A DNA stretch of 64,000 nt from Jejuia sp. (GCA_049889775.1 JBMHCT010000021.1:39024-103023), one strand, 5' to 3'; counted from the first letter of the stretch, positions 39,539 through 54,654 are shown. Translations and numbers: made by a program. Notes: generated from the letters alone by a model not told the origin.

Positions 39539-40756
39539 ATGCGATTACACAAAAACCTCTGCTTCGCCGTAATAGACGGATTGACACAAATCTTCAACGA
39601 AGCTCAATATGCCGATAAAGTAATTCAACAATTACTAAAACGTGATAAACGTTGGGGTGCACGCGACAGAGGTTTCGTAGCAGAAACCACATACGACATC
39701 GTTCGCTGGAAGCGCTTATACGGTGAAATAGCAGAAGTAAAAGCACCTTTTGATCGTGATAATCTCTGGCGCATGTTTGCCGTTTGGGCAACTTTAAAAG
39801 GTATTAAATTACCAGACTGGAAATACTTTGAAGGTACACCAACCCGAAAAATAAAAGGTCGTTTTGACGAGCTCTCAAAAATTAGAAAATTTAGAGAATC
39901 TATTCCAGACTGGATTGATAATGTTGGTTTAGAGGAGTTAGGCGAAACCAAATGGACCCAAGAAATCGCCATGCAAAACGAGCAGGCAGATGTGATTTTG
40001 AGAGTTAACTCCCTAAAAACCACAAAGGATGAACTACAAAATATCCTTGCTGATCAAAACAACATCCAAACCGAATTTATCAAAGGCTATCCATCGGCAT
40101 TAAAACTTATCGAACGCGCCAATGTATTCGTTACCGATGCTTTTAAAAACGGACTTTTTGAAGTTCAGGACGCTTCCTCTCAACTAGTAGCAGAATTTTT
40201 AGACGTAGCTTCTGGAATGAAAGTGGTCGATGCTTGTGCTGGTGCTGGTGGTAAAACATTGCACATAGCTTCTTTAATGCAAAACAAAGGGCAAATTGTG
40301 GCGATGGACATCTATGAAAGCAAGCTCAAAAAACTAAAAGTAAGAGCACGCCGAAATGGGGTTCATAATGTAGATTTGAAAGTGATTGATTCTACAAAAC
40401 CCATAAAAAAGCTTCATAATAAAGCAGACCGTGTTTTGATTGATGCGCCTTGTTCAGGTTTAGGAGTATTGCGACGAAACCCAGATGCCAAATGGAAATT
40501 AGAACCAGCGTTTTTAGATAGAATTAAAGGCGTACAACAAGACGTATTACAACAATATTCTAAAATGGTAAAACCCGGTGGTAAATTGGTTTATGCTACG
40601 TGCTCCGTACTACCATCTGAAAATCAAAATCAAATAGAAACCTTTTTAAAATCAGAAGCTGGCACCAATTTTGAGTTTGTTCAAGACAAAAAAATATTAG
40701 CACATGAATATGGTTTTGATGGATTTTACATGGCTCTATTGGAAAGAAAAGGCTAG
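39539..40756 (+). CDS. RsmB/NOP-family RNA m5C methyltransferase
   Basis: FEVQDASSQ, DACAGAGGKT, DAPCSGLG, YATCS; TACCTTTG at 39513-39520. Confidence 0.93.
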   Translation: MRLHKNLCFAVIDGLTQIFNEAQYADKVIQQLLKRDKRWGARDRGFVAETTYDIVRWKRLYGEIAEVKAPFDRDNLWRMFAVWATLKGIKLPDWKYFEGTPTRKIKGRFDELSKIRKFRESIPDWIDNVGLEELGETKWTQEIAMQNEQADVILRVNSLKTTKDELQNILADQNNIQTEFIKGYPSALKLIERANVFVTDAFKNGLFEVQDASSQLVAEFLDVASGMKVVDACAGAGGKTLHIASLMQNKGQIVAMDIYESKLKKLKVRARRNGVHNVDLKVIDSTKPIKKLHNKADRVLIDAPCSGLGVLRRNPDAKWKLEPAFLDRIKGVQQDVLQQYSKMVKPGGKLVYATCSVLPSENQNQIETFLKSEAGTNFEFVQDKKILAHEYGFDGFYMALLERKG

Positions 40757-40762
40757 TTTCCT

Positions 40763-40834
40763 GTCTTCTGAACTGGTTTCAGAATCTTTTAATCTTCATC
40801 AATAGATAAGAACCTGAAACAAGTTCAGGTTGAC
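40763..40834. repeat. REPIN-like doublet of family B hairpins
   Basis: GTCTTCTGAACTGGTTTCAGAATCT (40763-40787) and the inverted AGAACCTGAAACAAGTTCAGGTTGAC (40809-40834). Confidence 0.85.
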
Positions 40835-40868
40835 AAAGCATGACAAAAAATATCGGTATTTTTAAATC

Positions 40869-41732
40869 ATGAACGCCGGTTTTAAAACATACCTTTCAGA
40901 TTTACTAAATGAATCCATTTTAGGTATTAATTCTATTTCTGGCGGTGACATCTCCAAAGCCTATAAAATCTCAACAACAAACTCTGATTACTTTCTAAAA
41001 ATTAACAATGCTCAAAATGCGCTAACAATGTTTCAAACAGAAGCCTATGGTTTACAAACTATTGGCAAAACATGCACCATAAAAACACCCGAAGTCATTG
41101 CTTATGATATGTTTGAAGATTCTGCATTTTTGTTATTGGAATTTATAGAATCGAAATCACCAACATCCGAAGGTTTTAGACTACTTGCAACGCAATTAGC
41201 GCAATTACATCAATGTACTTCTGAAAGTTTTGGTTTGGATAAAGACAACTTTATCGGACGTTTACCACAACCCAACAAACAACACAAAACTTGGACGGAT
41301 TTTTACACTTGCGAACGCTTGCAACTACAGCTGGAAATGGCAAAACAAAAAGGCTTTCTACAAGAATTTGAATTTCCAAGTACAGAACTCATAAAAAATC
41401 GATTACAACCATTGTTTAAAAACATAAAACCATCTTTATTGCATGGTGATTTATGGAGTGGTAATTACTTAATTTCAAAAGATGGTGAACCATATTTAAT
41501 TGATCCCGCAGTGTATTACGGCCATAGTGAAGTTGATATTGCTATAAGCAAACTTTTTGGCGGTTTTGGCGAAACGTTTTATGAGGCTTATTGGTCAATA
41601 TTACCTCCTGATGAGCATACTTCGGCAAGAATTGATATTTACCAACTGTATTATTTACTAGTGCACTTAAATATGTTTGGGCGGTCTTATTATGGGTCGG
41701 TAAGCTCAATTTTAAAAAGGTACTTCGCTTGA
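40869..41732 (+). CDS. Fructosamine kinase family protein
   Basis: ISGGDIS, YFLKIN, PSLLHGDLWSGN, IDPAVYYGHSEVDIA. Confidence 0.92.
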   Translation: MNAGFKTYLSDLLNESILGINSISGGDISKAYKISTTNSDYFLKINNAQNALTMFQTEAYGLQTIGKTCTIKTPEVIAYDMFEDSAFLLLEFIESKSPTSEGFRLLATQLAQLHQCTSESFGLDKDNFIGRLPQPNKQHKTWTDFYTCERLQLQLEMAKQKGFLQEFEFPSTELIKNRLQPLFKNIKPSLLHGDLWSGNYLISKDGEPYLIDPAVYYGHSEVDIAISKLFGGFGETFYEAYWSILPPDEHTSARIDIYQLYYLLVHLNMFGRSYYGSVSSILKRYFA

Positions 41733-41809
41733 CTTTGTAAAATTTTTCTTCTACCTTCGTTTACCGGCGGATATAAGCCATTATACAACGGCGCATATCC
41801 GAAATCACG
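41729..41809 (+). mobile_element. Cassette platform, left arm A1: promoter (TTG-N20-TACCTTCG) plus left part of an attC-like hairpin
   Basis: 79/81 bp identical to 51314-51394; similarity ends sharply after GAAATCACG. Confidence 0.75.
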
Positions 41810-42830
41810 TTAGGTGCAATTTCAACCAACCCAAATGAACATCGTTAGAACATTTATTCACACAAATAGAGACATTCACGGAAAAGATTGTATTTCTGAA
41901 TTTTTACTACCAAATATTGCCGAGAATAAACCAAACTTTATTGGAATGACTTCAGGTAAATCTTATGATTTAGGCTTGATTGTTGGAACGAGCAGAAAAT
42001 GGGATGAGAACATTCTTTTTAACGAATTTAAGAAAGTTAAAAGTGTTGGACTTTTTGGGAGAAAACGAAAAAAGCAGATTCTAAAAACCTACATCTCACA
42101 AATACCAAAATTAAGAGAAGAATATCCTGACTCAATTGTTGAACTTGACAACGAATTAAGTTTGGTAAGAGTGGAATCCCGAACCGAATTTCTAAACCGA
42201 ACCAAACCGAAACCAAAATCTATTTCTAAAAAAGTTAAGGATAATTACTTGAATTTAGCTCAAGCTTGTCTGAATGAAGAACAGTTATCTGAATTCCAAT
42301 CTTTTATAAAAAATCTAAAGGACTATAATGGACATTGGAAATATGGAACAACTCTGAATTTCGTAAATGAGTTTTTAAACCAAAAGAAGATTTTTCTCTT
42401 TCTGGTTTTGGACTGGAAAGCTGGAATAGCAGATTTAAACTGGATTTTGAATTTAGCATTTGAAAAAAACTTTAATCAAAAAATTGAACTTCCAAGTACT
42501 GATAATTATCCAGAAAGAGCATCTGTTTCTTATGACAACGTGTTTTACGATTATAAAAAAGTATTAAATAAGTCGGATTTTGATATAACAATTATAGATA
42601 CAGATAGTGACCAATATGTACTTTTATTACACAAATTGTCTGAAAAAGATAATGTTTCGGAATCAATAGCTGGAATTGAATTTAAGGAAATGAAAATAAA
42701 CTGCACCTAACAATGTATAACCGCAATTACGGCGGATTCGACTACGTCCGAATCCACTCGGAATTGCTAAATACAGTGCTTAACCGTAAACCCTAACTTT
42801 AAACCCGTAACGGACGGTTATACGAGACCG
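41809..42830 (+). mobile_element. Integron-like gene cassette (single ORF plus attC-like site)
   Basis: Starts G|TTAGGTGCA (GTTRRRY). The ORF stop lies in the perfectly complementary inverse core TGCACCTAAC (42702-42711). Inner arms GTATAACCG (42715-42723) and CGGTTATAC (42815-42823). Confidence 0.75.
41835..42710 (+). CDS. Hypothetical cassette protein (C-terminal region resembles DUF6630, LDWK...DTDSDQY)
   Basis: Open frame; likely start ATG 41835 (the track start at 41814 lies inside the core site). Domain call is from memory of the motif only. Confidence 0.6.
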   Translation: MNIVRTFIHTNRDIHGKDCISEFLLPNIAENKPNFIGMTSGKSYDLGLIVGTSRKWDENILFNEFKKVKSVGLFGRKRKKQILKTYISQIPKLREEYPDSIVELDNELSLVRVESRTEFLNRTKPKPKSISKKVKDNYLNLAQACLNEEQLSEFQSFIKNLKDYNGHWKYGTTLNFVNEFLNQKKIFLFLVLDWKAGIADLNWILNLAFEKNFNQKIELPSTDNYPERASVSYDNVFYDYKKVLNKSDFDITIIDTDSDQYVLLLHKLSEKDNVSESIAGIEFKEMKINCT

Positions 42831-42949
42831 GTTAAACGAACCTAAAAAAAGACCCAATAAGTAGATTGAGGGCCATAGCTGGCAAACACGCCCGCGTTAG
42901 GGATTGCAGAGGAAAGCCCACAGCGCAGCTAAAGCGGAGCGAGGACTTG
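42831..42949 (+). mobile_element. Cassette platform, right arm B1
   Basis: About 88% identical by manual alignment to 51628-51747, beginning GT(T/G)AAACGAACCT. Confidence 0.75.
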
Positions 42950-42982
42950 GAAAGGAAAGCCCGACCCTTTAGGGTAACGCCC
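42891..42982 (-). repeat. MITE-like element family A, copy 3
   Basis: GCGTTAGGGATTG...AAAGCCCGACCC..GGGTAACGCCC, the reverse complement of the family termini. Confidence 0.85.
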
Positions 42983-43020
42983 AAAGTAGATAATTTGAAC
43001 TCTGTAATTTTACAGCTTGC

Positions 43021-45030
43021 CTAATCTAAATACGAAAACGCATCAATTGTTACGGGCCCTACAGGATTACCTTTATAATGTTTACCGGTAGCTTTAAGCT
43101 CTAATTTATGAAGCCCTAAAGGCAAAACTTCGGTTTGATAAATTACAGAATCGTGCAAGGGGTTCTTAAAATAGCAATCTATATTTTCAACATAAACATC
43201 ATCAATATAAACCTCGAAACCACCCATGTTTTTACTGATTAAACCATAGCAGCGGGCTTGTGTTCCGTTAAAGAAAAATGTTGCTGATGCGCCTTTTTGA
43301 GAGGTAACTTGTTCGCTACCTAAATAAATATCTTGCCCTTCTTTGTTTGCATTCCAATTACCCTTATAAACAATAGTGTAATGGTTATCGTCTACTTTAT
43401 TCCAAAAACTCGTGTTGGTATCAGAAATACGAACTTCATAAACGCCTTCAACATCTTTAATTGGAATATTAATCTTAGAAATTTCATAAGGCTTTAAGGC
43501 TGGTATTTTGAGTTGTTTTATAACCTGCCACTCCTCGTTGGCATAAGTATAGACTTTTAAAACGACTGGATTAGAAGGCTTTAGTCCAAAATTTTCTACC
43601 TGAGTTTTCAAAATACCTTCTTCAATTTTTATAGGCAGTGTAACCAATGCAGCAGGGTCTTCTTTATACTGCGGAAGTAAGGCATAGCCATACAGCATAT
43701 TACCTGAGTTTGTTTCTCCTAAAAGTTTTAAATCATAATTTGAAGTGTTCAATTTTGTTCCATGCCAATTGAAAGTCAATATCAAATCTCCATTAAGTTC
43801 TTCGGAAGTAGAAACCACCGCACCTCCTCCGTAATTGACCACCTCGGAGCCTCCTAATCGCAAAGATTCAATATTAACATCTTTAGTAGGATTGAATCCT
43901 TTTTCAGCTTTAATCCTAATGTTTACATTTTTTGTGTTTTCTGTGATATTATCAGTATTTATCACTTCAATTAAACGTTCGGTAACCAATGGCAAAATCA
44001 CATGTTTTGAACTGTGATTGTCATTACCCAAATCTTCTTTTTTCTCAACATCAATTACTGCTAAGGATAAATGGGTAGCCCTTCCATATTCATCTTGTTG
44101 CACTTTGGGGCGTTCAAATTTGGTCCAAGTATTTGTAGTGCCATCAGTGTACCTAAAAACCGTTTTATCATAAGGTTCCCCAGGTTCAATTTTCCAGTTA
44201 ATGCCATCTAGTGAGCGCATATAGACTGATTTTTTATCTACCGCATGATTAAACACCACATGGTACTGGTGACGACTTTTCCAAATAACTGGGTCTTCGG
44301 GATAACCGCTGTATCTATCATAATTTCTAACGGAAATGATTTCATAAGGCCCAAGTAAACCTGTTTTAGAAATCATGACATCACCACGTTTTGTAAAAAA
44401 CATAAAACTACCATCTGCTCTTTGAAGCCCTGTTAAATTTGTGTTTAAATGCGATAAACCTTTATGCCTTCGTTTATCAATCTTAATTTTACCTAAAAAT
44501 TGCCAAGGTCCGTCAAGAGTTTCAGAAGTATAAACTCCTCCTTTACTTACATGCAACATGTACGCACCATTGTTTAACTGAACGACTTCAGGGTTATGTG
44601 CTTCTTTAAGGGCTATACCTGTAACTTTATATGGACCAATTGGATTTTTAGAAACTGCGTGGGCCACTTCAGATTTTGGCCAACCCCAATGTCCTTTTTC
44701 CTCAGGCCATCGGGCAACATTAATATGGTATTTATCGTCCTTTCCTAACATAGGGTTTCCGCCCCAGTAACTCCAATCATTAGACTCTAAACCATTATTT
44801 ATATCTCGTGGTAAAACGTCATCTGTTCCCCAAATACCTTTTGAAGTTAGTTTTTTTATGATAGGCATTGGTTTGATGATATCCTTAAACTGTCCGCCAA
44901 ATACCAGTTTCTTATCATCTTTTTGAGCATATACTGAAAAATGCAGAACTAAAAGCAATGAAAGGCACGCTAAAATTCCATTACTCAATTTAGTGTTAAT
45001 TACTTCATTTTCTGTAATTTTTACTTTCAT
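43021..45030 (-). CDS. Secreted glycoside hydrolase, GH43-like five-bladed propeller with C-terminal beta-sandwich modules
   Basis: Signal peptide; WSYWGGNP..HAVSKNPIGPY, HNPEV, EDPVIW, ERPKV motifs. Family not firmly assignable. Confidence 0.6.
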   Translation of the reverse strand: MKVKITENEVINTKLSNGILACLSLLLVLHFSVYAQKDDKKLVFGGQFKDIIKPMPIIKKLTSKGIWGTDDVLPRDINNGLESNDWSYWGGNPMLGKDDKYHINVARWPEEKGHWGWPKSEVAHAVSKNPIGPYKVTGIALKEAHNPEVVQLNNGAYMLHVSKGGVYTSETLDGPWQFLGKIKIDKRRHKGLSHLNTNLTGLQRADGSFMFFTKRGDVMISKTGLLGPYEIISVRNYDRYSGYPEDPVIWKSRHQYHVVFNHAVDKKSVYMRSLDGINWKIEPGEPYDKTVFRYTDGTTNTWTKFERPKVQQDEYGRATHLSLAVIDVEKKEDLGNDNHSSKHVILPLVTERLIEVINTDNITENTKNVNIRIKAEKGFNPTKDVNIESLRLGGSEVVNYGGGAVVSTSEELNGDLILTFNWHGTKLNTSNYDLKLLGETNSGNMLYGYALLPQYKEDPAALVTLPIKIEEGILKTQVENFGLKPSNPVVLKVYTYANEEWQVIKQLKIPALKPYEISKINIPIKDVEGVYEVRISDTNTSFWNKVDDNHYTIVYKGNWNANKEGQDIYLGSEQVTSQKGASATFFFNGTQARCYGLISKNMGGFEVYIDDVYVENIDCYFKNPLHDSVIYQTEVLPLGLHKLELKATGKHYKGNPVGPVTIDAFSYLD

Positions 45031-45035
45031 ATGTG

Positions 45036-46688
45036 TTATTTGTATGTTTCAACTATTGCTTTTATTCTCGGAAACTCCTCATCTGTGTCTCCAACTTCTT
45101 CTCTAATTCTGAAAAGTTCAGTTTTCAGTTCACTTATAATATCTGAATATTTAGGGTTTTCGAATTGATTTACCATTTCATTAGGGTCTTTTTCTAAATC
45201 GTAAAATTCCCATGCTGCAGGTGTATCATGCCAATAACGGTTGCCATTTTTATCTTCAACTATTTGATTGTTATGAATGTTAGTATAATCAGCACCATAA
45301 AAGAAAATAAGCTTGTATTTTTTTGTTCTGATGCCAAAATGTGCTGGATTATTATGTTTGTGCGCCATGTGCATCCAATATCTGTAATAGGTTGCTTTAC
45401 GCCAATCTTTAGGTTCCCTTTCGCCTTTTAAGGCATCCACAAAACTTTCTCCCTGCATGTACTCTGGCTTTTCTATTCCTGCCAACCCAAGCAATGTAGG
45501 GGCATAATCTGTATTGTTAATCAACCAATTGTTTCGTGTACCAGAATTTATCATTTTTGGATAATGAACAATTAATGGCATTTTAATAGATTCCTCATAC
45601 ATCCAACGTTTATCAATAAAATCATGTTCACCAAGAAACATCCCTTGGTCACTGGTATATACAATGATGGTATTTTCCATTAAATTATTTTGTTCTAAAT
45701 AATTTAAAATGCGTTGTAAGTTATCATCAATTCCTTTTACACACCTTAAATATTCCTTTAAATACAATTGATACACTTGATGTGTGATTTCCTTATCTGA
45801 TAATCCTTCTGTGTTTATTTTCTTTTTTCTTTTGTAGATTTGACTTAAACTTCGTTTTTTACCTGAATTTGGAGAAATAGTGGAACCTATTTCATCTATA
45901 AGTGTATCATCTTTACCTCTCGTAGCTATAGAACCAAAATGTTTTTCGGGTTGACGATATAGGTTTTGTGGTTCTGGTATCTCAACATCTTTTAAATAAT
46001 CTTTATATCTATCTGCATAAACAAACATATCGTGTGGCGCCTTAAAATGATGCATCAAAAAAAACGGTTTCGTTTTTTCTCGCTTATTTTCTAACCAATC
46101 TAAAGATATATCCGTCAACACATCAGAAGAATGTCCTTTTGTATCAATTACTTCAATTTCCTTTTCTAAAGTACTATCAAAACGCACATTTCGTTTTTCC
46201 CCTTCTTCGCTAACATGAATTACGGGGTTTATGTAGCTGCCTTGTCCAGCGATAACCGCAAAATAATCGGCATATTTAGGCGAATAACGTAAATGCCATT
46301 TCCCAACAACAGCTGTAGTATAGCCAGATTGCTGTATTTCCTGAAGTAAATAATGTTTTTCACCTGGTAATCCCGTATACAAATCGTACGCCTTATTAAC
46401 GTGCGAATATTGTCCTGTCATTATTGTAGCACGACTGGGGGTACAAATGGAATTAGTGCAAAATACATTATCAAAAACCATCGCTTTTTTGGCTAGTTTA
46501 TCTAGGTTTGGTGTAGGATTAAGTGTAGCTAATCTTCCACCATAAACTCCAATAGCACGATCGCAATGGTCATCTGCCATGATATATATGATATTTGGCC
46601 TTTCTTGACTATTCGTATTTAAAACGGTTAATAGAGAGGTGAAAATCAAAGCTAATTTCCAATATGTCTTGAAGCTTATTATTGCCAT
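45036..46688 (-). CDS. Cys-type (S1) sulfatase 1
   Basis: PNIIYIMADDH, CTPSRATIMTG, GKWH, YTSDQG, KRWMYEES. Confidence 0.93.
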   Translation of the reverse strand: MAIISFKTYWKLALIFTSLLTVLNTNSQERPNIIYIMADDHCDRAIGVYGGRLATLNPTPNLDKLAKKAMVFDNVFCTNSICTPSRATIMTGQYSHVNKAYDLYTGLPGEKHYLLQEIQQSGYTTAVVGKWHLRYSPKYADYFAVIAGQGSYINPVIHVSEEGEKRNVRFDSTLEKEIEVIDTKGHSSDVLTDISLDWLENKREKTKPFFLMHHFKAPHDMFVYADRYKDYLKDVEIPEPQNLYRQPEKHFGSIATRGKDDTLIDEIGSTISPNSGKKRSLSQIYKRKKKINTEGLSDKEITHQVYQLYLKEYLRCVKGIDDNLQRILNYLEQNNLMENTIIVYTSDQGMFLGEHDFIDKRWMYEESIKMPLIVHYPKMINSGTRNNWLINNTDYAPTLLGLAGIEKPEYMQGESFVDALKGEREPKDWRKATYYRYWMHMAHKHNNPAHFGIRTKKYKLIFFYGADYTNIHNNQIVEDKNGNRYWHDTPAAWEFYDLEKDPNEMVNQFENPKYSDIISELKTELFRIREEVGDTDEEFPRIKAIVETYK

Positions 46689-48139
46689 TTTGTAGTATTC
46701 AAAAGTTCAGTAAGCCTTTCAATCTTATCCGACTCTTCTACAAGAAGATTTTTTTCTTCGAAAGGATCCTCCTCCAAATTAAATAATGCAGTTGGAGCAT
46801 TTCTTTTAAAAATAAGCTTCCATTCCTTATCACGAATGGCAAACTGCCCTGTTGAAGACTGCATTACTAAAGATTGACGCACCGTCTTTTGTTCTAAAAG
46901 CGTTGGTAAAATATTACAACTATCTTCTCCTCCTTTGGTTTCTGGTTCAATTTGTAACAATTCAGAAAACGTGTTGTAAAAATCTAACAAACACACCAAA
47001 TTATCATTCTTCTGGCCTCCTTGAATTCGGGATGGCCACCTTACTATTAATGGCACACGATGTCCACCTTCAAAAGTTCCGCCTTTAAACCCTCTTAGGT
47101 TTCCGCAACTTTTATGTTCATAGGTTTTGCCATCGTCACTGGTTTTTGTTGCTCCATTGTCACTAGTTACGATTAGTATTGTATTTTCATCAATATTAAG
47201 ATGATCTAAAGTCTTCATAATTTGCCCCACGGTCCAGTCAAACTCGGCAACCATATCACCACGCTCACCAGCTTCACTTTTTCCTTTTATAAAATCTGGT
47301 GGTGTGCATGGTCTATGTGGTGAAACCGTTGGAAGATATAAAAAGAAAGGCTGTTCAGGATTTTTCGCTACAGAATTTTCAATAAAATTAATAGCTTTTG
47401 TAGTTAAATCTGGTCCCACTTTTCTAGAATCCCAATCTTTTATCATCCAACCCTCGTGTACCTCAACAGCAGAAACATCTGGATGAAGTGTATCTTTTGC
47501 TTTTCGCCAAATATTTGGAATACCCACCGTATAATCGTTTTCTATATAACAGAAAGGCTCCATGTTATGGCCTGCGGCCGAAAGAAAAGCATAATCAAAA
47601 CCCAAATAGTTAGGCCCATTATGAATTGCTGTATTAAAATCTACATCTCTTGTTCCTTTGGCTCCTTTTTCATGATGTGTTTTAGGTTTTACAAAATCAA
47701 TATCTATTTTTCGTGAGAAATTCATTCCCAAATGCCATTTGCCAACAACTCCAGTAGTATAACCTGCTTTTTGAAAAATATCAGCCAAAGTTGTTTCATC
47801 TTTATGAATTAAAGGATCATCATATCCAGACCACGACACCTTTTTCTTTAAACGACTTCTCCACGCATAACGCCCTGTAAGTAATGCATAACGAGAAGGC
47901 GTACAAACGGATGATGCTGTATGCGCATCTGTAAATAACATACCTTGTTCACTCAAAGCATCCATATTTGGCGTGGGAATTTTAGATTCTGGATTGTAAC
48001 ATTTTGGATCCCCATAACCCATATCGTCCGCCATAATAATAATGACATTGGACTGGCTGCTTTCAGTGTTTTGAGCATTAACCGATAGACTCAAAGTAAA
48101 AACTAAAGCATTAACACCCCAAAAAAAACTATATTTCAT
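46679..48139 (-). CDS. Cys-type (S1) arylsulfatase-like sulfatase 2
   Basis: NVIIIMADDMG, CTPSRYALLTG, GKWHLG, TSDNG, GGHRVP. Confidence 0.93.
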   Translation of the reverse strand: MKYSFFWGVNALVFTLSLSVNAQNTESSQSNVIIIMADDMGYGDPKCYNPESKIPTPNMDALSEQGMLFTDAHTASSVCTPSRYALLTGRYAWRSRLKKKVSWSGYDDPLIHKDETTLADIFQKAGYTTGVVGKWHLGMNFSRKIDIDFVKPKTHHEKGAKGTRDVDFNTAIHNGPNYLGFDYAFLSAAGHNMEPFCYIENDYTVGIPNIWRKAKDTLHPDVSAVEVHEGWMIKDWDSRKVGPDLTTKAINFIENSVAKNPEQPFFLYLPTVSPHRPCTPPDFIKGKSEAGERGDMVAEFDWTVGQIMKTLDHLNIDENTILIVTSDNGATKTSDDGKTYEHKSCGNLRGFKGGTFEGGHRVPLIVRWPSRIQGGQKNDNLVCLLDFYNTFSELLQIEPETKGGEDSCNILPTLLEQKTVRQSLVMQSSTGQFAIRDKEWKLIFKRNAPTALFNLEEDPFEEKNLLVEESDKIERLTELLNTTKWQ

Positions 48140-48140
48140 T

Positions 48141-49703
48141 TTACTCGTTTTTAAGCTTTTTTAATTGCAAATCCCGTTCTTTATTTGCCTTATTATATGT
48201 TGATTTTAAATTACTAGAATTTACATTTTCCACCTGATAATTTGGATTTATAATTGGTAATTCTGCCTGCATCTTATTAAGCTCCAGGTCAAGTTTTAAT
48301 GCCAAATTCTCAATTAATTTTGGTTTTTTATTTGACAAATCGTTTTGCTCATAAGGATCATTCTTTAAATTAAATAGTAAATATTTACCAGCTTCATCAT
48401 TATAAAAGTGAATCAGTTTATAATCGTCTTCAATAATTGATGAATATGGACTTGTACTGCCTGTGTAATGCGGAAAATGAAACACCAAACACCTTTGAGC
48501 ATGGTTTGGTTTTTTGTTTAAAATATTTAGAAAACTTTCACCGTCACTATGTTGTTCTGGGATTAATTCCACACCTGCAATTTCCAAAAAAGTAGGATAA
48601 AAATCCATTCCAACAATACGCTGATTTGCTATTTGATTTGGAGCTACAACCTTAGGCCATTTCACTATTAATGGAACACGCATTGCGGCTTCAAATGCAT
48701 AGCTTTTACCACCTAGTAATGGATAATTTGATGTATTTCGATTCAAGCCTCCGTTATCCGATGTAAAAACAACTATTGTGTTTTCATCCAACCCTAATTG
48801 TTTCAACTTTTCGTTTAATCTCCCAATACTTTCATCAACCGACGCCAACATTGCTGCATATTCGGGATTATCCTGGTCTGTTGTTGTTTTATTTTTGAAA
48901 TGGCCAACTAATTCTGGTTTTGCCTGAATTGGATTATGCACCAAATAGTGTGACAGTACCGCTAAAAATGGTTTATCATTATTTCGTTCAATAAAACTGA
49001 TACATTTATTGGTTAATACATCTGCAATATATTGATCATCTTCTATATGCTGTAAACCAACACCATAAGACTTGAATGTTTTGCCCCAGTGGCCAGAAAC
49101 TGCTGTTGGTACGTGTTTATTTCTATAGCCTATTGCAACATCAAAACCTCTATTTTCAGGGATGTAATCTGGATGGATACCACAATGCCACTTCCCAAAA
49201 AACCCGGTGGCATATCCATTATCTTTTAAAACATGAGCGAAAAACACTTCGTTTTTTGGAATATTGTGTCTGTGCAATGCTTCATAATATTGATTATTGT
49301 TGCCTCCATCTCGTTTTTTACTAACCTCATATAATCTATCGTCTGGAGCAGCTTTCCCATTAAAAACAGTTGTGAATTTTGTTCTAGCAGGGTTTTTTCC
49401 AGTAAAAATTGCACCGCGTGAAGGTGCGCATACGGGAGCTGCAGAATAAGCTTTTGTAAAACGCATGCCTTCATTTGCCATTTTATCGATATTTGGCGTT
49501 TCGTAATAAGCGCTTCCTGAACAACTCATATCCTTCCAACCCATGTCATCAATAATAACCAAAACAATATTGGGTTTATCTTGAGCATAAACTACCAAGG
49601 TGCACAAGATTAAGAACAAACGCATACACAAATCCGTAAGTCTTTTTAGCATCCTTTTATTGAAAAAGTGAGAATTATATTTAGTTTGGTTCTTTATAAT
49701 CAT
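48141..49703 (-). CDS. Cys-type (S1) sulfatase 3
   Basis: PNIVLVIIDDMG, CAPSRGAIFTG, GKWH, TSDNGG. The real start is probably downstream of the track start. Confidence 0.93.
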   Translation of the reverse strand: MIIKNQTKYNSHFFNKRMLKRLTDLCMRLFLILCTLVVYAQDKPNIVLVIIDDMGWKDMSCSGSAYYETPNIDKMANEGMRFTKAYSAAPVCAPSRGAIFTGKNPARTKFTTVFNGKAAPDDRLYEVSKKRDGGNNNQYYEALHRHNIPKNEVFFAHVLKDNGYATGFFGKWHCGIHPDYIPENRGFDVAIGYRNKHVPTAVSGHWGKTFKSYGVGLQHIEDDQYIADVLTNKCISFIERNNDKPFLAVLSHYLVHNPIQAKPELVGHFKNKTTTDQDNPEYAAMLASVDESIGRLNEKLKQLGLDENTIVVFTSDNGGLNRNTSNYPLLGGKSYAFEAAMRVPLIVKWPKVVAPNQIANQRIVGMDFYPTFLEIAGVELIPEQHSDGESFLNILNKKPNHAQRCLVFHFPHYTGSTSPYSSIIEDDYKLIHFYNDEAGKYLLFNLKNDPYEQNDLSNKKPKLIENLALKLDLELNKMQAELPIINPNYQVENVNSSNLKSTYNKANKERDLQLKKLKNE

Positions 49704-51123
49704 TTCCTTTTTTACTGTTCTCCACAGAATTGAGCCACTCAGAAAGTTCTTGTTTCATCTTTTTAGCAATTTCGGGAAGTTCTTTTATAATGTTTTGCTT
49801 TTCAGACGCATCATTAATTAGATCGTACAGCTCAAAGTCTTTTCCATTGTTAATACTAATCAATTTATATTGATTATCAGCCCAAGATTGTTGTCCTCTA
49901 AATATAAAACCAATTGGCTTGGTTCGTTCTATATCCTGTCCTTTTAGCGCAGGTAATATGCTCATACCATCTATAGGGCGATTATCAGGGAAATCTAATT
50001 GTAGAATATCAAGTATTGTTGGCAAGTAATCGCTTGTAACAGTAGGTTTATCTATTCGTTTTCCTGCTGCAAAATGATTGTTCGATACCGCAAATGCAGG
50101 AACTCTTAAACCACCCTCATACAAACTTCTTTTTCGGCCTTTAAAAATACCTGCACTACCTGGTGTTTTGTTTTCTGGACCATTATCACTACAATACATC
50201 AAAATAGTATTATCTGCTATTCCTCGAGCTTCTAGCGTTTTCCAAAGTCTGCCAATTTGTTCATCCATCGCGGTAATTGCTCCATAATATAATTGTTTTT
50301 CTAAATCCAAATCTTTGTAATAACTACGGTGAATAGTATCGGTAACTACAGGCAAATGCGGACTATGAAACCATATCGTTGTAAAAAATGGTTTGTTTTC
50401 TTTGTTAGTGTTTTCAATAAATGGGAGTAAGCGATCCATTATAATTTTGGAATCGTCACCATCTAGATTCTTCGTAATCTTTTCATTTTCTCCGACCCAA
50501 TACGCTGTTCCATAAGGCTTAGTTGCACTGCTATCTTTAACAGCTTTCCACCCAAACCGTTTACTTTCGCCTTCTCCAAACTCGGCAGGAAACACCATAG
50601 GATCATATGTTGGCACTTTAGATTCTGTACTAAAAAACACATCATACCCATGCTCTGTAGGTAAATTAAAATCTGAAATAAACTTTTCTTTTCCGCCTCT
50701 ATTGGCATCAGGTTCGGTTTTAGACAGCGTACCTAAATGCCATTTCCCAAAATGCCCTGTGGCATAACCTTGTGCCTTTAAAAGTTCAGGAATTGTTATT
50801 TCTCCTTTTTTTAGATGCCCAACATTAGCACTTGGAATATTTGTCCGCAAAGGATGTCGTCCTGTAAGTACACTTGCCCTAGTTGGCGAGCACACCGCAG
50901 ATGCTGAATAAAAACGATCTAGAATCACGCCTTTAGAAGCTAAGAAATCCATATTAGGTGTCTGAACCACAGAATTACCATTGAAACCAGTATCATACCA
51001 ACCATGATCGTCGGACATGATTAAAATGATATTGGGTTTCTCTTGCTCTCTTTCATTTTTATTTGACATACAAGTGTATTGTAAACAAATAAAAAGGCTT
51101 ACCATGACTTTGGTGAAATTCAT
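49681..51123 (-). CDS. Cys-type (S1) sulfatase 4
   Basis: PNIILIMSDDHG, CSPTRASVLTG, GKWHLG, SDNGP, LYEGGLRVP. Confidence 0.93.
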   Translation of the reverse strand: MNFTKVMVSLFICLQYTCMSNKNEREQEKPNIILIMSDDHGWYDTGFNGNSVVQTPNMDFLASKGVILDRFYSASAVCSPTRASVLTGRHPLRTNIPSANVGHLKKGEITIPELLKAQGYATGHFGKWHLGTLSKTEPDANRGGKEKFISDFNLPTEHGYDVFFSTESKVPTYDPMVFPAEFGEGESKRFGWKAVKDSSATKPYGTAYWVGENEKITKNLDGDDSKIIMDRLLPFIENTNKENKPFFTTIWFHSPHLPVVTDTIHRSYYKDLDLEKQLYYGAITAMDEQIGRLWKTLEARGIADNTILMYCSDNGPENKTPGSAGIFKGRKRSLYEGGLRVPAFAVSNNHFAAGKRIDKPTVTSDYLPTILDILQLDFPDNRPIDGMSILPALKGQDIERTKPIGFIFRGQQSWADNQYKLISINNGKDFELYDLINDASEKQNIIKELPEIAKKMKQELSEWLNSVENSKKGNDYKEPN

Positions 51124-51313
51124 GCTTTAGTTTTAGTTCGGCTTATTGAAAAAGCTATTTAGTTAGCGCTTACAAGTTAAGAAATATGGAGTATGCATAT
51201 TGCTTATATATTGGCAATATAACATCAAAAAAGCATAACAAATCGTTTATAATTTTAGAAACCCCATTGTACTTAAAACAAGGTTATGTGTTCAATCCAG
51301 ATTTACGTTTTGT

Positions 51314-51394
51314 TTGACTTTGTAAAATTTTTCTTCTACCTTCGTTTACCAGCGGATATAAGCCATTATTCAACGGCGCATATCCGAAATCACG
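51314..51394 (+). mobile_element. Cassette platform, left arm A2
   Basis: 79/81 bp identical to 41729-41809. Confidence 0.75.
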
Positions 51395-51627
51395 ATGGTA
51401 TGTAATTAACTGCGGCACGTGGAACCCGCGTTTTGCAAACGCTCCCATTCCACTAATTACATACCATCGTCCACTGTTTGTTGCACCCCTAGCCAATTAT
51501 TAGTACTTTTAATCGAGTCCACGTGAACTCCACAGTAACTAACTACACACATCAGCGTGTATAGCGAATGGGGCGCAACAATGGCTACCCAGTGGGGCGC
51601 GCCCCACTACGCCATACACAGTGGACG
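51395..51627 (+). mobile_element. ORF-less palindromic insert with attC-like structure
   Basis: 17-bp perfect inverted repeat 51392-51408/51454-51470; arms GTGTATAGCG and CGCCATACAC; CGTCCACTGT (51468-51477) is complementary to ACAGTGGACG (51618-51627). Confidence 0.6.
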
Positions 51628-51747
51628 GTGAAACGAACCTCAAAAATAGACTTAATACGTACATTGAAGGCCATAGCAAGCAAATACGCACGCGTTAAGG
51701 ATTGCAGAGGAAAGCCCACAGCGTAGCTAAAGCGGAGCGAGGACTTG
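51628..51747 (+). mobile_element. Cassette platform, right arm B2
   Basis: About 88% identical to 42831-42949. Confidence 0.75.
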
Positions 51748-51803
51748 TAACCCTTCGACTTCGCTCAGGATAAACTCCAAGCCCAACCCTTTAAGGGACG
51801 CCC
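51692..51803 (-). repeat. MITE-like element family A, copy 4, with nested REP (CCCTTCGACTTCGCTCAGGAT, 51751-51771)
   Basis: Degenerate termini GCGTTAAGGATTG and GGGACGCCC; extra hairpin relative to copy 3. Confidence 0.8.
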
Positions 51804-52032
51804 AATAAACGTATCAAAATCTCTAAGGTTAAGACTATTAATTCTTCAATATTCAATTCATTTTTTTGCTAAAACATTGAAGTTGCAAGGCTTGATATGG
51901 CAAATAGGTAATAGTTTTACATTGGTAACCTTTTTTTAACAATTAGGTTTATTTTTGCTAACATAGCCAAAAAGAGACAATAGCTCATTTTAATGGCGGT
52001 TGTTTACTTAATAACACCAACTTACAGAGAAT

Positions 52033-54654
52033 ATGATTCAAAAAGGTACAGAAGCACAACGGTTGGCAACTCCTAAAAGCAATGAAAACTGGAAAAAATG
52101 GGGGCCATATCTAGCAGATAGACAATGGGGAACAGTTCGTGAAGATTACAGTTTACATGGCGAATCTTGGGAATTTATAGATCATGAAAAAGCCCGTAGC
52201 AACGCCTTTAGATGGGGTGAAGAAGGGATTGCTGGTTTTACCGATATAAGAGAAATTTTATGTTTAGCACCTGCATTTTGGAACGGTAATGATACTATTT
52301 TAAAGGAGCGTTTATTTGGACTAACCAATAACCAGGGCAATCATGGTGAAGATGTTAAAGAATTATATTTTCATCAAGTATCGTCTCCCACACATTCTTA
52401 CAACAAATTTTTATATAAATACCCTCAAGCTGCCTTTCCATATGGCGAATTGGTGCACCGAAATCAAATTGGTAGAGAGCATTTTGAATATGAATTATTA
52501 GATACCGATGCCTTTAAAAACAATGCCTATTTTGATTGTTTTATAGAATATGCTAAAGCGGATGTTGACGATATTTTAATGAAGGTTACTATTGTAAATA
52601 GAGGTGATAAAATGGCTGATATTCATGTATTACCTCATTTATGGTTTAGAAATTTTTGGAAACACAACAAGCGCCATTCTCGTCCAAAAATAAAATCTAC
52701 ATCTACTTCTTCAGCTTTAACAAGTAGTAAGCGCAACGGCAATTATTATTTTTACAACGATGGCGGCACACAATTGTTTTGTGATAATGAAACCAATAAT
52801 AAACGCATTTACAATTTTAAAAACGACGTACCTTATGTAAAAGATGGAATTAACGAGCATGTTGTTAATAACCAACCTACTGTTAACCCTAAACAAACAG
52901 GATCTAAAATGGCTGTGTGGCATAAACTCTCACTTAAGTCTGGTGAAGAAAAAACGGTTCGCGTACGTCTTAGTAAATCCAAGTTAAAGAATCCTTGGGA
53001 GGATTTTGATACTATTTTCTATAATAGAATTAAGGAATGTGAGGAATTTTATAATGAGACTATTGATGCCAAAGTTCCTGAAGCGCATCAAGCAATAGCT
53101 AAAAATGCTTTTGCTGGTTTACTATGGACAAAGCAATTTTACTATAACGATGTGTTTAAATGGTTATTTGGTGGCCCAGGAGAAAGCAAACCACATAGAC
53201 ACAACATGCGTAATTATAGTTGGCAACATCTTACCAATAGAGATATTATTTCTATGCCAGATAAATGGGAATATCCGTGGTATGCTGCTTGGGATTTGGC
53301 ATTTCATATGGCATCTTTTGTTGAAATTGACCCTGATTTTGCAAAAGACCAAATGCTTTTAGTTCTTAAGGAAAATTACATGCACCCTAATGGACAAATT
53401 CCCGCTTACGAATGGAATTTTAGTGATGTAAATCCGCCTGTACACTCTTACTTTGTTTGGCATGTTTACAATCGCGATAAAACATATACTGGTAAAGGAG
53501 ACACTAAATTCTTAGAAACCGCATTCCAAAAGCTACTCATGAATTTTACTTGGTGGGTAAATCAAAAAGATAAAAATGGAACGGACCTCTTTGAAGGTGG
53601 CTTTTTAGGTTTGGATAACATTGGTGTTTTTGACCGTAACCACATGCCACCAGGTATTAAGCGCATGCAGCAAGCCGATGCCACAAGTTGGATGGCCATG
53701 TTTACATTGAATATGCTTCGCATGTCGTTAGAACTATCTAAAACCAATAGAATCTACGAAGAAGTAGCCGCAAAATTCTTTAGGCATTTCTTAAACATTG
53801 CCTGGGCAATGCATCATATTGGTAAAAAGGACATTTCGCTTTGGGATGATGAAGATAATTTCTATTACGATGTGGTGGAAATGGAATCTGGCGCAACTGA
53901 TAGGCTAAAAGTACGCTCTTTAGTTGGTGTAATACCTATGTTTGCTGTTGAAATAATGCACAAAGATTTATTCGAGGAACTAAAGGAGTTTAGAGTACGA
54001 GCGAACAAAATTATAGAAACACGCCCAGATTTGGCATCCTTAATCACCAAACTAGATAAAACCAATGAAGATGGTAACTATCTTTTTGCTATTATGCGTG
54101 GTTTTAGATTACAACATCTTCTCAAACGCTTATTGGATGAGGATGAATTTTTATCTGATTATGGTATTCGTTCTTTATCAAAATATCACGAAAAGCATCC
54201 TTTTGTTTTTCAACACCATGGTCATCATCAAATCCAGTATGAGTCAGGAGAAAGTCAGTCTAATATGTTTGGTGGTAATTCCAACTGGCGTGGTCCCATA
54301 TGGATTCCTATTAACTACATGATAATACAATCTTTACGAAAATATTATACTTTCTATGGAGACAGATATAAATATGAATTTCCAACAGGCTCTGGTAATA
54401 AACTTAACTTAAAACAAATAGCAAACGAGCTTACAAAACGTTTGGTAAAACTTTTTGAGGCAAATGAAGATGGAAAATTTCAGTACCATGCTGATAATGC
54501 AGATAAGCATTTTACCAAGGATGAGCATTTTAAAAATCTGCACTTATTTTATGAATTTTTTGATGGTGATAATGGAAAAGGTCTAGGCGCATCCCACCAG
54601 ACTGGGTGGACAGCTTTAATAGCCAATTTAATTATGGAAATGGATGAAGATTGA
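52033..54654 (+). CDS. GH63/MGH1-like glucosidase
   Basis: WGPYLADRQWGTVREDYS, MPDKWEYPWYAAWDLAFH, GGFLGLDNIG, FYEFFDGDNGKGLGASHQTGWT. Confidence 0.85.
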   Translation: MIQKGTEAQRLATPKSNENWKKWGPYLADRQWGTVREDYSLHGESWEFIDHEKARSNAFRWGEEGIAGFTDIREILCLAPAFWNGNDTILKERLFGLTNNQGNHGEDVKELYFHQVSSPTHSYNKFLYKYPQAAFPYGELVHRNQIGREHFEYELLDTDAFKNNAYFDCFIEYAKADVDDILMKVTIVNRGDKMADIHVLPHLWFRNFWKHNKRHSRPKIKSTSTSSALTSSKRNGNYYFYNDGGTQLFCDNETNNKRIYNFKNDVPYVKDGINEHVVNNQPTVNPKQTGSKMAVWHKLSLKSGEEKTVRVRLSKSKLKNPWEDFDTIFYNRIKECEEFYNETIDAKVPEAHQAIAKNAFAGLLWTKQFYYNDVFKWLFGGPGESKPHRHNMRNYSWQHLTNRDIISMPDKWEYPWYAAWDLAFHMASFVEIDPDFAKDQMLLVLKENYMHPNGQIPAYEWNFSDVNPPVHSYFVWHVYNRDKTYTGKGDTKFLETAFQKLLMNFTWWVNQKDKNGTDLFEGGFLGLDNIGVFDRNHMPPGIKRMQQADATSWMAMFTLNMLRMSLELSKTNRIYEEVAAKFFRHFLNIAWAMHHIGKKDISLWDDEDNFYYDVVEMESGATDRLKVRSLVGVIPMFAVEIMHKDLFEELKEFRVRANKIIETRPDLASLITKLDKTNEDGNYLFAIMRGFRLQHLLKRLLDEDEFLSDYGIRSLSKYHEKHPFVFQHHGHHQIQYESGESQSNMFGGNSNWRGPIWIPINYMIIQSLRKYYTFYGDRYKYEFPTGSGNKLNLKQIANELTKRLVKLFEANEDGKFQYHADNADKHFTKDEHFKNLHLFYEFFDGDNGKGLGASHQTGWTALIANLIMEMDED

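Follow-up and report, generated by a model that had tools for sequence, protein, structure and literature searches.

The window, by which we mean the whole stretch of DNA analysed, comprises 64,000 nucleotides of a Jejuia sp. genome (GCA_049889775.1, contig JBMHCT010000021.1; G000:C21:39024-103023 in our numbering of genomes and contigs). Between a fructosamine kinase gene (gene A) and a gene for a GH63-like glycoside hydrolase (gene B), it carries two copies of a repeated unit of about 110 nt, termed the platform, in which a promoter-like motif is coupled to a hairpin and which is opened in each copy by a different insert. We argue that the platform is probably a docking and expression site for mobile cassettes, and that it belongs to an integron-like system of the Flavobacteriaceae. 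The features of the locus are listed below with positions counted from the first letter of the window; R1 denotes a covariance model of the attC-like site at cassette ends (underlying alignment of 13 sites), R2 a covariance model of the platform built from 24 copies of its first arm (arm A), and ORF an open reading frame.

40869-41732, plus strand: gene A, fructosamine kinase, context gene (ORF list; Pfam PF03881, 5.8e-87)
41729-41759, plus strand: promoter-like part of platform 1 (-33 TTG at 41729-41731, 20-nt spacer, -7 box TACCTTCG at 41752-41759)
41756-41809, plus strand: putative recombination site of platform 1, 5' part (sequence; hairpin covariation)
41810-42830, plus strand: cassette 1, 1,021 bp (starts TTAGGTGCA; R1 site; Pfam PF20335)
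42831-42877, plus strand: 3' part of the platform 1 site, R' box GGTTAAACGAA and A-rich tail (R' complementary to R'')
42878-42985, plus strand: Flavo-1-like repeat copy 1, the 3' part of arm B (Rfam RF01705, 21.9 bits, sub-threshold)
43021-51123, minus strand: five-gene operon between the platforms, a 669-aa protein of unknown family and four sulfatases (ORF list)
51314-51394, plus strand: head of platform 2, with promoter, R'' box, hairpin, spacer and G (R2, 100 bits at 51309-51396)
51395-51627, plus strand: ORF-less 233-bp cassette (start ATGGTATG; ends in its own hairpin site)
51628-51675, plus strand: R' box (GTGAAACGAA) and tail of platform 2
51676-51810, plus strand: Flavo-1-like repeat copy 2, ancestral at the locus
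52033-54654, plus strand: gene B, GH63-like glycoside hydrolase, context gene 3' of platform 2

Anatomy and covariation of the platform

A first-pass annotation, made from the sequence of the window alone, had reported two arms, A and B, each occurring twice and split from one another at a single base; its coordinates and identities were reproduced. The copies of arm A (41724-41809 and 51309-51394) are spaced 9,585 bp apart and are 95% identical over 86 nt (by BLAST, 97.5% over 81 nt, E = 5e-34), while those of arm B (42844-42952 and 51642-51750) are 88% identical (by BLAST, 87.8% over 123 nt, from 42831 and 51628). Arm A ends in ...CCGAAATCACG in both copies (also given as ...ATATCCGAAATCACG), arm B begins with GGTTAAACGAACC in copy 1 and GGTGAAACGAACC in copy 2, and the inserts between them, 41810-42830 (1,021 bp) and 51395-51627 (233 bp), are mutually unrelated and open the same base. 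As single-stranded DNA, the joined arms are predicted to fold with -13.9 kcal/mol on the top strand and -15.4 kcal/mol on the bottom strand (z = -4.0 and -4.5, respectively), and the joined form is found naturally in related genomes.

The platform consists, in order, of the promoter, an R'' box, an L''/L' hairpin, an unpaired spacer of 7-8 nt ending in CG, an R' box and an A-rich tail. The R'' box, which the -7 box overlaps, reads CTTCGTTTAAC or a version ending in ACC, the R' box reads GTTAAACGAA or GGTAAACGAA, and the consensus of the site is CTTGACTTTGTAAAAATTTTCnnCTAnCTTCGTTTAAC-N3-GGATATAAGCCATTAnnAACGGCGnATATCC-N7-8(..CG)|TTAAACGAAC, where the vertical bar marks the crossover. In platform 1, the R'' box TTCGTTTACC (41756-41765) overlaps the -7 box and is followed by the hairpin CGGATAT...ATATCCG (41768-41801), the spacer AAATCAC (41802-41808) and the G that precedes the crossover (41809).

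Comparisons were made with 18 genomes of the genus and with a family sample of 151 genomes from 150 genera; filled right junctions were read locus by locus, and the automatic right-junction search was too noisy. Across the aligned platforms, the hairpin has 93.5% of cells paired and compensatory changes at six of its eight pairs; none of 500 shuffles equalled this, and slid controls scored far lower. The two R boxes covary across the intervening cassette: R'' boxes ending in TTTAAC face G|TTAAAC in 11 of 11 copies and those ending in TTTACC or TTTACT face G|GT(N)AAAC in 12 of 12, and at one locus (L042) a 1-nt deletion on the R'' side is matched on the R' side. The attC-like hairpin geometry proposed in the first-pass annotation thus stands, with the hairpin shown to covary.

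The platform always breaks directly 3' of the conserved CG, with TT, GT or AT as the next dinucleotide, and cassettes contribute CG|TT at the junction. Both copies in the window belong to the ACC type and therefore cross over at CG|GT, in agreement with the G|GT originally suggested. A crossover between GG and TT was considered for this subtype and rejected: filled left junctions read CACG|TT, not CACGG|TT. We also rejected the possibility that the platform is itself an ordinary cassette, as the complement of its start, TTGACTTTGT, mismatches the R'' box and insertion of a circular platform at a secondary site would leave its parts wrongly ordered.

Conservation within the platform is highest in the columns TTGAnTTTGT and TAnnTTCGTTTA, which are invariant in 24 copies and recur in 22 other genera. 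Together they match the sigma-A pattern of flavobacteria, a TAnnTTTG -7 box with TTG 20 nt upstream; the published -7 consensus, TAnnTTTG, lies at -12 to -5 (PMC9723704). Transcription is predicted to start at about 41764 and 51349, at the boundary between R'' and hairpin, and ORFs are co-oriented with the promoter in every platform cassette examined, bar the ORF-less 233-bp element. A Bacteroidota-type promoter aimed at the insertion point had been proposed at the outset; at the level of sequence, a conserved sigma-A-type motif is confirmed, from which we infer an active promoter. At one locus in G000 (L007, L010), the gene for an IS110-family transposase (321 aa; PF01548 and PF02371; G000:C35:219275-220570) splits the -7 box, so that the promoter fragment is cut off from a hairpin site that is otherwise empty. 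Elements of the IS110/IS1111 group target attC-type hairpins.

Cassettes, empty platforms and exchange of inserts

At least 15 independent inserts share one grammar. Each starts with TT and 7-8 variable nucleotides, whose reverse complement, ending in AAC, follows just after the ORF as an R'' box; about 3 nt later comes a long imperfect hairpin, then a spacer of 6-7 nt, and the cassette closes with ...ACCG| joined to the platform's (G)TTAAACGAA. These cassette-end sites are uniformly about 128 nt long, and 10 of their 14 stem pairs show compensatory changes in the 13-site alignment. Some cassettes (L006, L009 and L039) showed no R'' box that would pair with the start at up to two mismatches. 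The R1 model detects 13 sites in G000 and sites in 123 of the 151 family genomes (122 of 150 genera), often 21 or more per genome.

Cassette 1 encodes a DUF6630 protein of 291 aa (41835-42710; Pfam PF20335). Its start pairs with the post-ORF R'' box TGCACCTAAC, which opens an attC-like site of its own (42701-42830) continuing with L'' GTATAACCG, L' CGGTTATAC, a spacer and ...ACCG|; R1 scores 88.7 bits at 42701-42840, and the site of the circularised cassette folds with z = -5.0, closed by the R boxes. The protein is rare, with three homologues in 401 genomes, all of them followed by R1 sites and one lying inside a multi-cassette array of another genus. The G+C content of the cassette is 32%, compared with 34.5% for the genome. 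Together, the platform cassettes of G000 encode DUF6630, an ORC/Cdc6-like ATPase, Shedu SduA, an ABC-type ATPase, an HNH nuclease and HTH proteins.

The 233-bp insert of platform 2 has the core GAT instead of GTT and ends in its own hairpin, GTGTATAGCG...CGCCATACAC-AGTGGAC-G|. At least six copies exist at 97-100% identity, mostly at contig ends (C3 end, both C36 ends, C21 start, C32 end and C35 end), and each of them is bounded as G|ATGGTATG...GTGGACG|, with either a further cassette or the tail of a platform behind it. Given these constant bounds, neighbours and contig-end positions, we take the element to be an ORF-less cassette that breaks the assembly of arrays, and many of the 22 G000 contigs shorter than 8 kb may be pieces of a single cassette array. 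Its G+C content is about 50%, in a genome of 34.5%. A small cassette cluster remote from any platform was also seen at G000:C11:331742-333100 (L068), with a shorter, different hairpin site, then an R1 site and then a cassette starting TTAGGCAAA.

R1 aligns weakly to platform hairpins, and an ordinary cassette at the start of contig C21 ends in a short platform-like hairpin that has no promoter; on sequence grounds, the site of the platform belongs, as a short form, to the family of ~128-nt cassette-end sites. A quite different reading would make promoter and hairpin mainly an RNA element, namely a 5' leader stem-loop stabilising or regulating accessory-gene mRNAs, which forms a panhandle with its downstream complement and resembles attC only secondarily. 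The promoter is the most conserved part of the platform, its predicted start puts the hairpin at the extreme 5' end of the transcript, the hairpin loop CATTAAAACG is conserved between genera, and covariation cannot separate an RNA fold from a DNA fold. We nevertheless judge the RNA reading very improbable, since empty sites have no gene between hairpin and complement, the hairpin is homologous to sites that lie 3' of ORFs at cassette ends and between the cassettes of arrays, and inserts are bounded at one fixed base and bring sites of their own. A leader role could coexist with a DNA role of the same hairpin.

Platforms are dispersed and numerous. R2 finds 13 in G000 (about a dozen copies of arm A by BLAST), some of them degenerate (C5:200335 and C32:9658); arm A is present in 14 of the 18 genus genomes, at up to 17 copies each, and R2 matches occur in 26 of the 151 family genomes (25 of 150 genera), one of which has 29 copies or more. 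R1 sites occur in all 26 genomes with platforms, and at 13 of 23 platform loci in other genera a same-strand R1 site lies within 1.5 kb. Platforms can stand in tandem: at G079:C2:668098-670107, three same-strand heads fall within 2 kb, together with an R1 site, and two of the heads are separated by only about 260 nt.

Closely related genomes show platforms both empty and differently filled. In G008 (L019/L108), the sequence ...AAATCACG|GTTAAACGAACC (also given as ...CATATCCGAAATCACG|GTTAAACGAACCTCC) runs uninterrupted and gene B lies 232 nt closer, which makes this locus the exact empty orthologue of platform 2, free of the 233-bp cassette; further empty platforms were found at L007, L021, L022, L026, L095, L098 and L103. 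Behind gene A, a platform is present in G000, G008, G003 and G005, each time with a different insert at the identical junction, and the gene A locus of eight other species has none. The heads of platform 1 are the same in G000 and G008, and the G000 tail, GTTAAACGAACCTAAAAAAAGACCCAATAAGTAGATTGA, has an orthologue in G008 with few substitutions; between these orthologous flanks lies the 1,021-bp DUF6630 cassette in the former and an unrelated cassette of about 1.17 kb in the latter. Because the neighbouring genes of the two genomes are 91-98% identical, this turnover is evolutionarily recent. The first-pass annotation had staked its idea of a dispersed docking site, opened at a fixed base, on the existence of empty A+B junctions and of other inserts at the same base in relatives; both were found, at the orthologues of copy 2 and copy 1, respectively, alongside the 13 copies in G000.

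The TGA stop codon of gene A falls within the -33 box of platform 1 (TTGA, 41729-41732). In species that have no platform there, the same codon is TAA or TAG, and in G000 the TTGA of the platform supplies the TGA. A palindromic repeat, GCTGAACTTGTTTCAG, lies in the hairpin loop of platform 1 in G008 (L072, about 2025-2060) and also 3' of gene A in G017 (L076), where the platform is absent.

Arm B had been treated as one part of the repeated unit. This holds for its first ~50 nt; the remainder is an intergenic repeat that we call only Flavo-1-like, because its match to Rfam RF01705 (21.9 bits, E = 0.91) is below the gathering score of 42. No other match came from an Rfam scan of window positions 40000-53500, and thus no known RNA family is present there. 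The core motif of the repeat has about 180 matches in G000, and the repeat upstream of gene B is also found in G010, G015 and G009, which have no platform at that place. Within the genus, the core follows the R' box by 51-56 nt in 11 of 12 tails (in G000, 8 of 8 at 51-53 nt), but in other genera repeat and platform are coupled in only one of nine tails, so a universal coupling was rejected. The coupling to a MITE-like repeat noted at first is therefore real in this genus, at a fixed offset, but it is confined to few lineages and is not a defining property of the platform.

This fixed offset would be expected if promoter and hairpin were the 5' end of each mobile unit, with promoter, gene, long site and tail moving jointly and landing beside Flavo-1-like repeats. 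The patchy presence of platforms at the gene A locus across the genus fits such movement, which would also account for an otherwise unexplained spread of platforms. However, heads and tails are orthologous among close relatives in which the cassette differs or is absent, the R'' box of the head pairs and covaries with the tail and not with the cassette, homologues of cassette 1 are present in an array that has no platform, and coupling to the repeat is lacking in most other genera. We therefore give joint movement of the whole unit very little credence, and continue to regard the platform as a resident site into which cassettes dock.

The sulfatase operon between the two copies raises a further question of origin. 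Genes A and B lie about 1-2 kb apart in G010, G015 and G009, and in G000 and G008 platform 1, the minus-strand five-gene operon and platform 2 stand between them; the first gene of the operon occurs in two of the 18 genus genomes, these same two. The segment 42831-51394 opens with an R' box and closes with a promoter, an R'' box, a hairpin and CG|, and thus looks like an 8.6-kb cassette with a platform as its site. The locus may accordingly be read as a three-cassette array in one platform, made up of cassette 1, the sulfatase segment and the 233-bp element, which suggests that the segment could have been captured from platform to platform as a giant cassette.

Ordinary homologous recombination offers a competing account, in which the two copies arose by Campbell-style integration of a platform-bearing circle or by segment duplication and the operon is not a captured mega-cassette. 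Platform, tail and repeat together give about 250-300 nt of homology, the arms A are 97.5% and the tails about 80% identical, as after a duplication, and the operon is reversed in orientation and far above the usual size of a cassette. Set against this, the segment fits the cassette grammar exactly, its start is complementary to its own R'' box, and it is lineage-specific and lies between genes that are adjacent elsewhere. We consider homologous recombination a serious contender for the origin of the two copies, though somewhat short of an even chance.

A Xer-like recombinase and the cassette arrays headed by its relatives

An intact reading frame at G000:C3:63427-64590 encodes a tyrosine recombinase of 393 aa with PF00589 and PF13495, belonging to the Xer/IntI clade. 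It scores 194 bits against XerA, 182 against the integron-integrase model and 175 against XerC, each below its cut-off, and a search for a true IntI among the G000 proteins gave a best score of 182 bits against the TIGR02249 cut-off of 265. Positions 180-238 of the integron-integrase model remain unmatched and, by comparison with VchIntIA (2a3v), residues ~213-244 have no counterpart in the G000 enzyme. These form the IntI-specific segment of about 32 residues, through which IntI recognises folded attC sites. Among solved structures, the best relative is the archaeal XerA (4a8e), and residues 1-118 gave no match to anything. The first-pass annotation had called the platforms integrase-free and had advised a search for IntI-like or other tyrosine recombinases. 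That description holds locally but not genome-wide: the search recovered this intact Xer-like enzyme, and no true IntI, and a copy of the 233-bp cassette starts 54 nt upstream of its gene, on the opposite strand, after ...GTTGATATATACGTG|.

Relatives of the enzyme stand at the head of cassette arrays. In the complete genome G010, an array with at least nine R1 sites lies directly downstream of a homologue, the first cassette beginning 65 nt past its stop codon. The orthologues in G017 and G008 (74% and 63% identity, respectively) are divergent from the first cassette, which is inserted at ...ATATATGTG|TT in G017 and at ...ATATATACGTG|TT in G008. Recombinase genes lie within about 0.5-15 kb of co-oriented R1 sites, by their coordinates, in more than 20 other family genomes. 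Across the 151 genomes, 99 have both sites and recombinase, 24 sites only, 6 the recombinase only and 22 neither, an odds ratio of about 15 that is uncorrected for phylogeny and genome size. G000-type orthologues of 54-75% identity carry one to four in-frame stops in, for example, G002, G004, G008, G025, G057, G080, G114 and G119; the recombinase gene decays often and cassettes persist.

Array heads carry a separate attI-like site, ...ATATATA(C/T)GTG|, and R2 finds no platform inside the arrays L065, L068, L069 and L070. The platform is therefore an additional kind of site and not an attI, contrary to the original idea that its hairpin takes the place of attI; the same four arrays led us to reject platforms as routine array spacers. 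Near the array heads of G017 and G008 lies an inverted repeat, TTTTGTATATCA...TGATATACAAAA. In the form TTTTGTATATCA-N11-17-TGATATACAAAA, it is conserved in three genomes, at the start of the recombinase or at the head of the array (G000:C3:64480-64570; L069, L070), and may be a binding site for the recombinase or a regulator. Because it overlaps the N-terminus of the annotated ORF in G000, the true start codon may lie further downstream.

Proposed mechanism and comparison with known systems

The anatomy of the sites and the comparative evidence make a strong case for the platform as a docking site. A circular cassette would recombine with the platform directly 3' of its CG, giving the product head-CG|TT-cassette...ACCG|(G)TTAAACGAA-tail, and the captured gene would then be transcribed from the platform promoter. 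Catalysis would be in trans, probably by the Xer-like recombinase on contig C3, whose relatives head arrays of the same sites, and its substrate would presumably be single-stranded, with the folded platform serving as a short version of the ~128-nt cassette-end hairpins.

Several points weigh against this reading. The C3 recombinase has no IntI-specific segment, and a hairpin substrate is therefore not guaranteed. Its link to an array in G000 appears to run through contig-end repeats, not contiguous sequence. Co-occurrence within the genus is imperfect, since G015 has seven platforms and no close homologue of the recombinase and G014 a homologue and no platform, and we do not take it as proof. 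Many G000-type orthologues are pseudogenes, and the duplication that flanks the sulfatases could equally stem from homologous recombination. Finally, no terminal inverted repeats or target duplications were seen at platform ends in the orthologous loci inspected, with and without the platform, where no dedicated search was made.

The decayed orthologues, the degenerate platforms of G000 and the platform split by an IS110-family element would also suit a fossil system, in which G000 keeps relics of past activity and nothing moves today. This is unlikely in our estimation, because the recombinase frame of G000 is intact, the 233-bp cassette is present in at least six copies of 97-100% identity, and G000 and G008 differ in the cassette of platform 1 and in the occupancy of platform 2 despite flanks that are 91-98% identical. 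Taking the docking-site reading further, we tentatively picture a distributed integron in which one Xer-like recombinase without the IntI domain would serve both an attI-headed array and dozens of docking sites, each expressing one cassette, and recombination between sites would move multi-kb segments such as the sulfatase operon as giant cassettes; we put this forward as a possibility rather than as an expectation.

Integrons are regarded as dependent on the IntI-specific domain and as scarcely present in Bacteroidota. The same cassette grammar alongside a recombinase without this domain makes the requirements for recombining folded sites directly testable. It also points to a second design, in which many promoter-bearing sites across the chromosome would each hold one swappable gene, often for defence, as opposed to a single array behind a single promoter. 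If true, transfer of operons from platform to platform would be a route for the exchange of polysaccharide-use genes in marine flavobacteria. The R1 and R2 models provide a practical means of finding cassettes. The literature searched describes neither the flavobacterial sites nor docking sites that carry a promoter.

Known integrons include sedentary chromosomal ones and CALIN, that is, attC clusters or single sites without an integrase (PMC4889954, PMC9024848), and a survey with IntegronFinder reported Bacteroidetes as nearly devoid of integrons (PMC9024848). The flavobacterial system resembles them in its promoterless, mostly single-gene cassettes, which end in a palindrome with R and L boxes and an AAC...GTT core, in a crossover before TT and in cassette starts complementary to their own R''. 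Further likenesses are arrays that adjoin a tyrosine recombinase with an attI-like site, sites of about 128 nt that are uniform within a lineage, as in the Vibrio repeats, and defence-type cassette content (Shedu SduA, ATPase, HNH). The order R''-L''...L'-R' with an AAC/GTT core at the cassette's 3' end, by which attC sites are recognised, is found in at least 15 cassettes, and the platform core is AAC/GTT or ACC/GGT. An array at an attI next to the integrase, as in integrons, is seen in G010, G017 and G008 and in G000 would extend across contig ends. Unlike those of integrons, the recombinase is without the IntI-specific insertion, scores under the cut-off and has an extra N-terminus of about 110 aa, the spacers of the site are strongly asymmetric (0-3 nt versus 6-8 nt), and many single cassettes sit in dispersed promoter-bearing sites rather than behind one Pc at attI. 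Since the recombinase is not an integron integrase by its defining features, we do not file the system as a classical integron.

Cassettes of integrons are reportedly able to insert at secondary genomic sites, termed attG in work attributed to Loot and colleagues (2024). Like such insertions, platform cassettes lie outside the array, scattered in the chromosome and, in our reading, serviced in trans; unlike attG, the platform is a conserved, structured module of about 110 nt with a promoter, found across 25 genera, and not a loose short motif. The pdif modules of Acinetobacter plasmids use XerC/XerD and double-stranded sites of 28 bp with a 6-bp spacer. They likewise tie Xer-family recombinases to exchangeable gene modules, but the flavobacterial repeats lie 44-130 nt apart and are paired as hairpins with covariation.

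Within the phylum, the nearest published relative, likened here by layout and description, is rAID-1 (recombinase-associated acquired interbacterial defence) of gut Bacteroidales, where a XerD-like recombinase precedes a co-oriented gene array whose intergenic repeats were described as "reminiscent of integrons" (Ross et al., bioRxiv 10.1101/471110). As given there, it is recognised by at least two co-oriented downstream genes, a recombinase more than 44% identical to BF9343_RS08045 and immunity genes of low G+C (10.1101/471110). Arrays of immunity genes behind the recombinase define rAID-1, and no folded site, crossover or dispersed promoter-bearing docking sites are described in the text consulted. 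No recognised immunity family occurs among the platform cassettes examined. The recombinase gene of G000, G017 and G008 points away from the array, unlike that of rAID-1, whereas G010 and many family genomes share its layout of a 5' recombinase followed by a co-oriented array.

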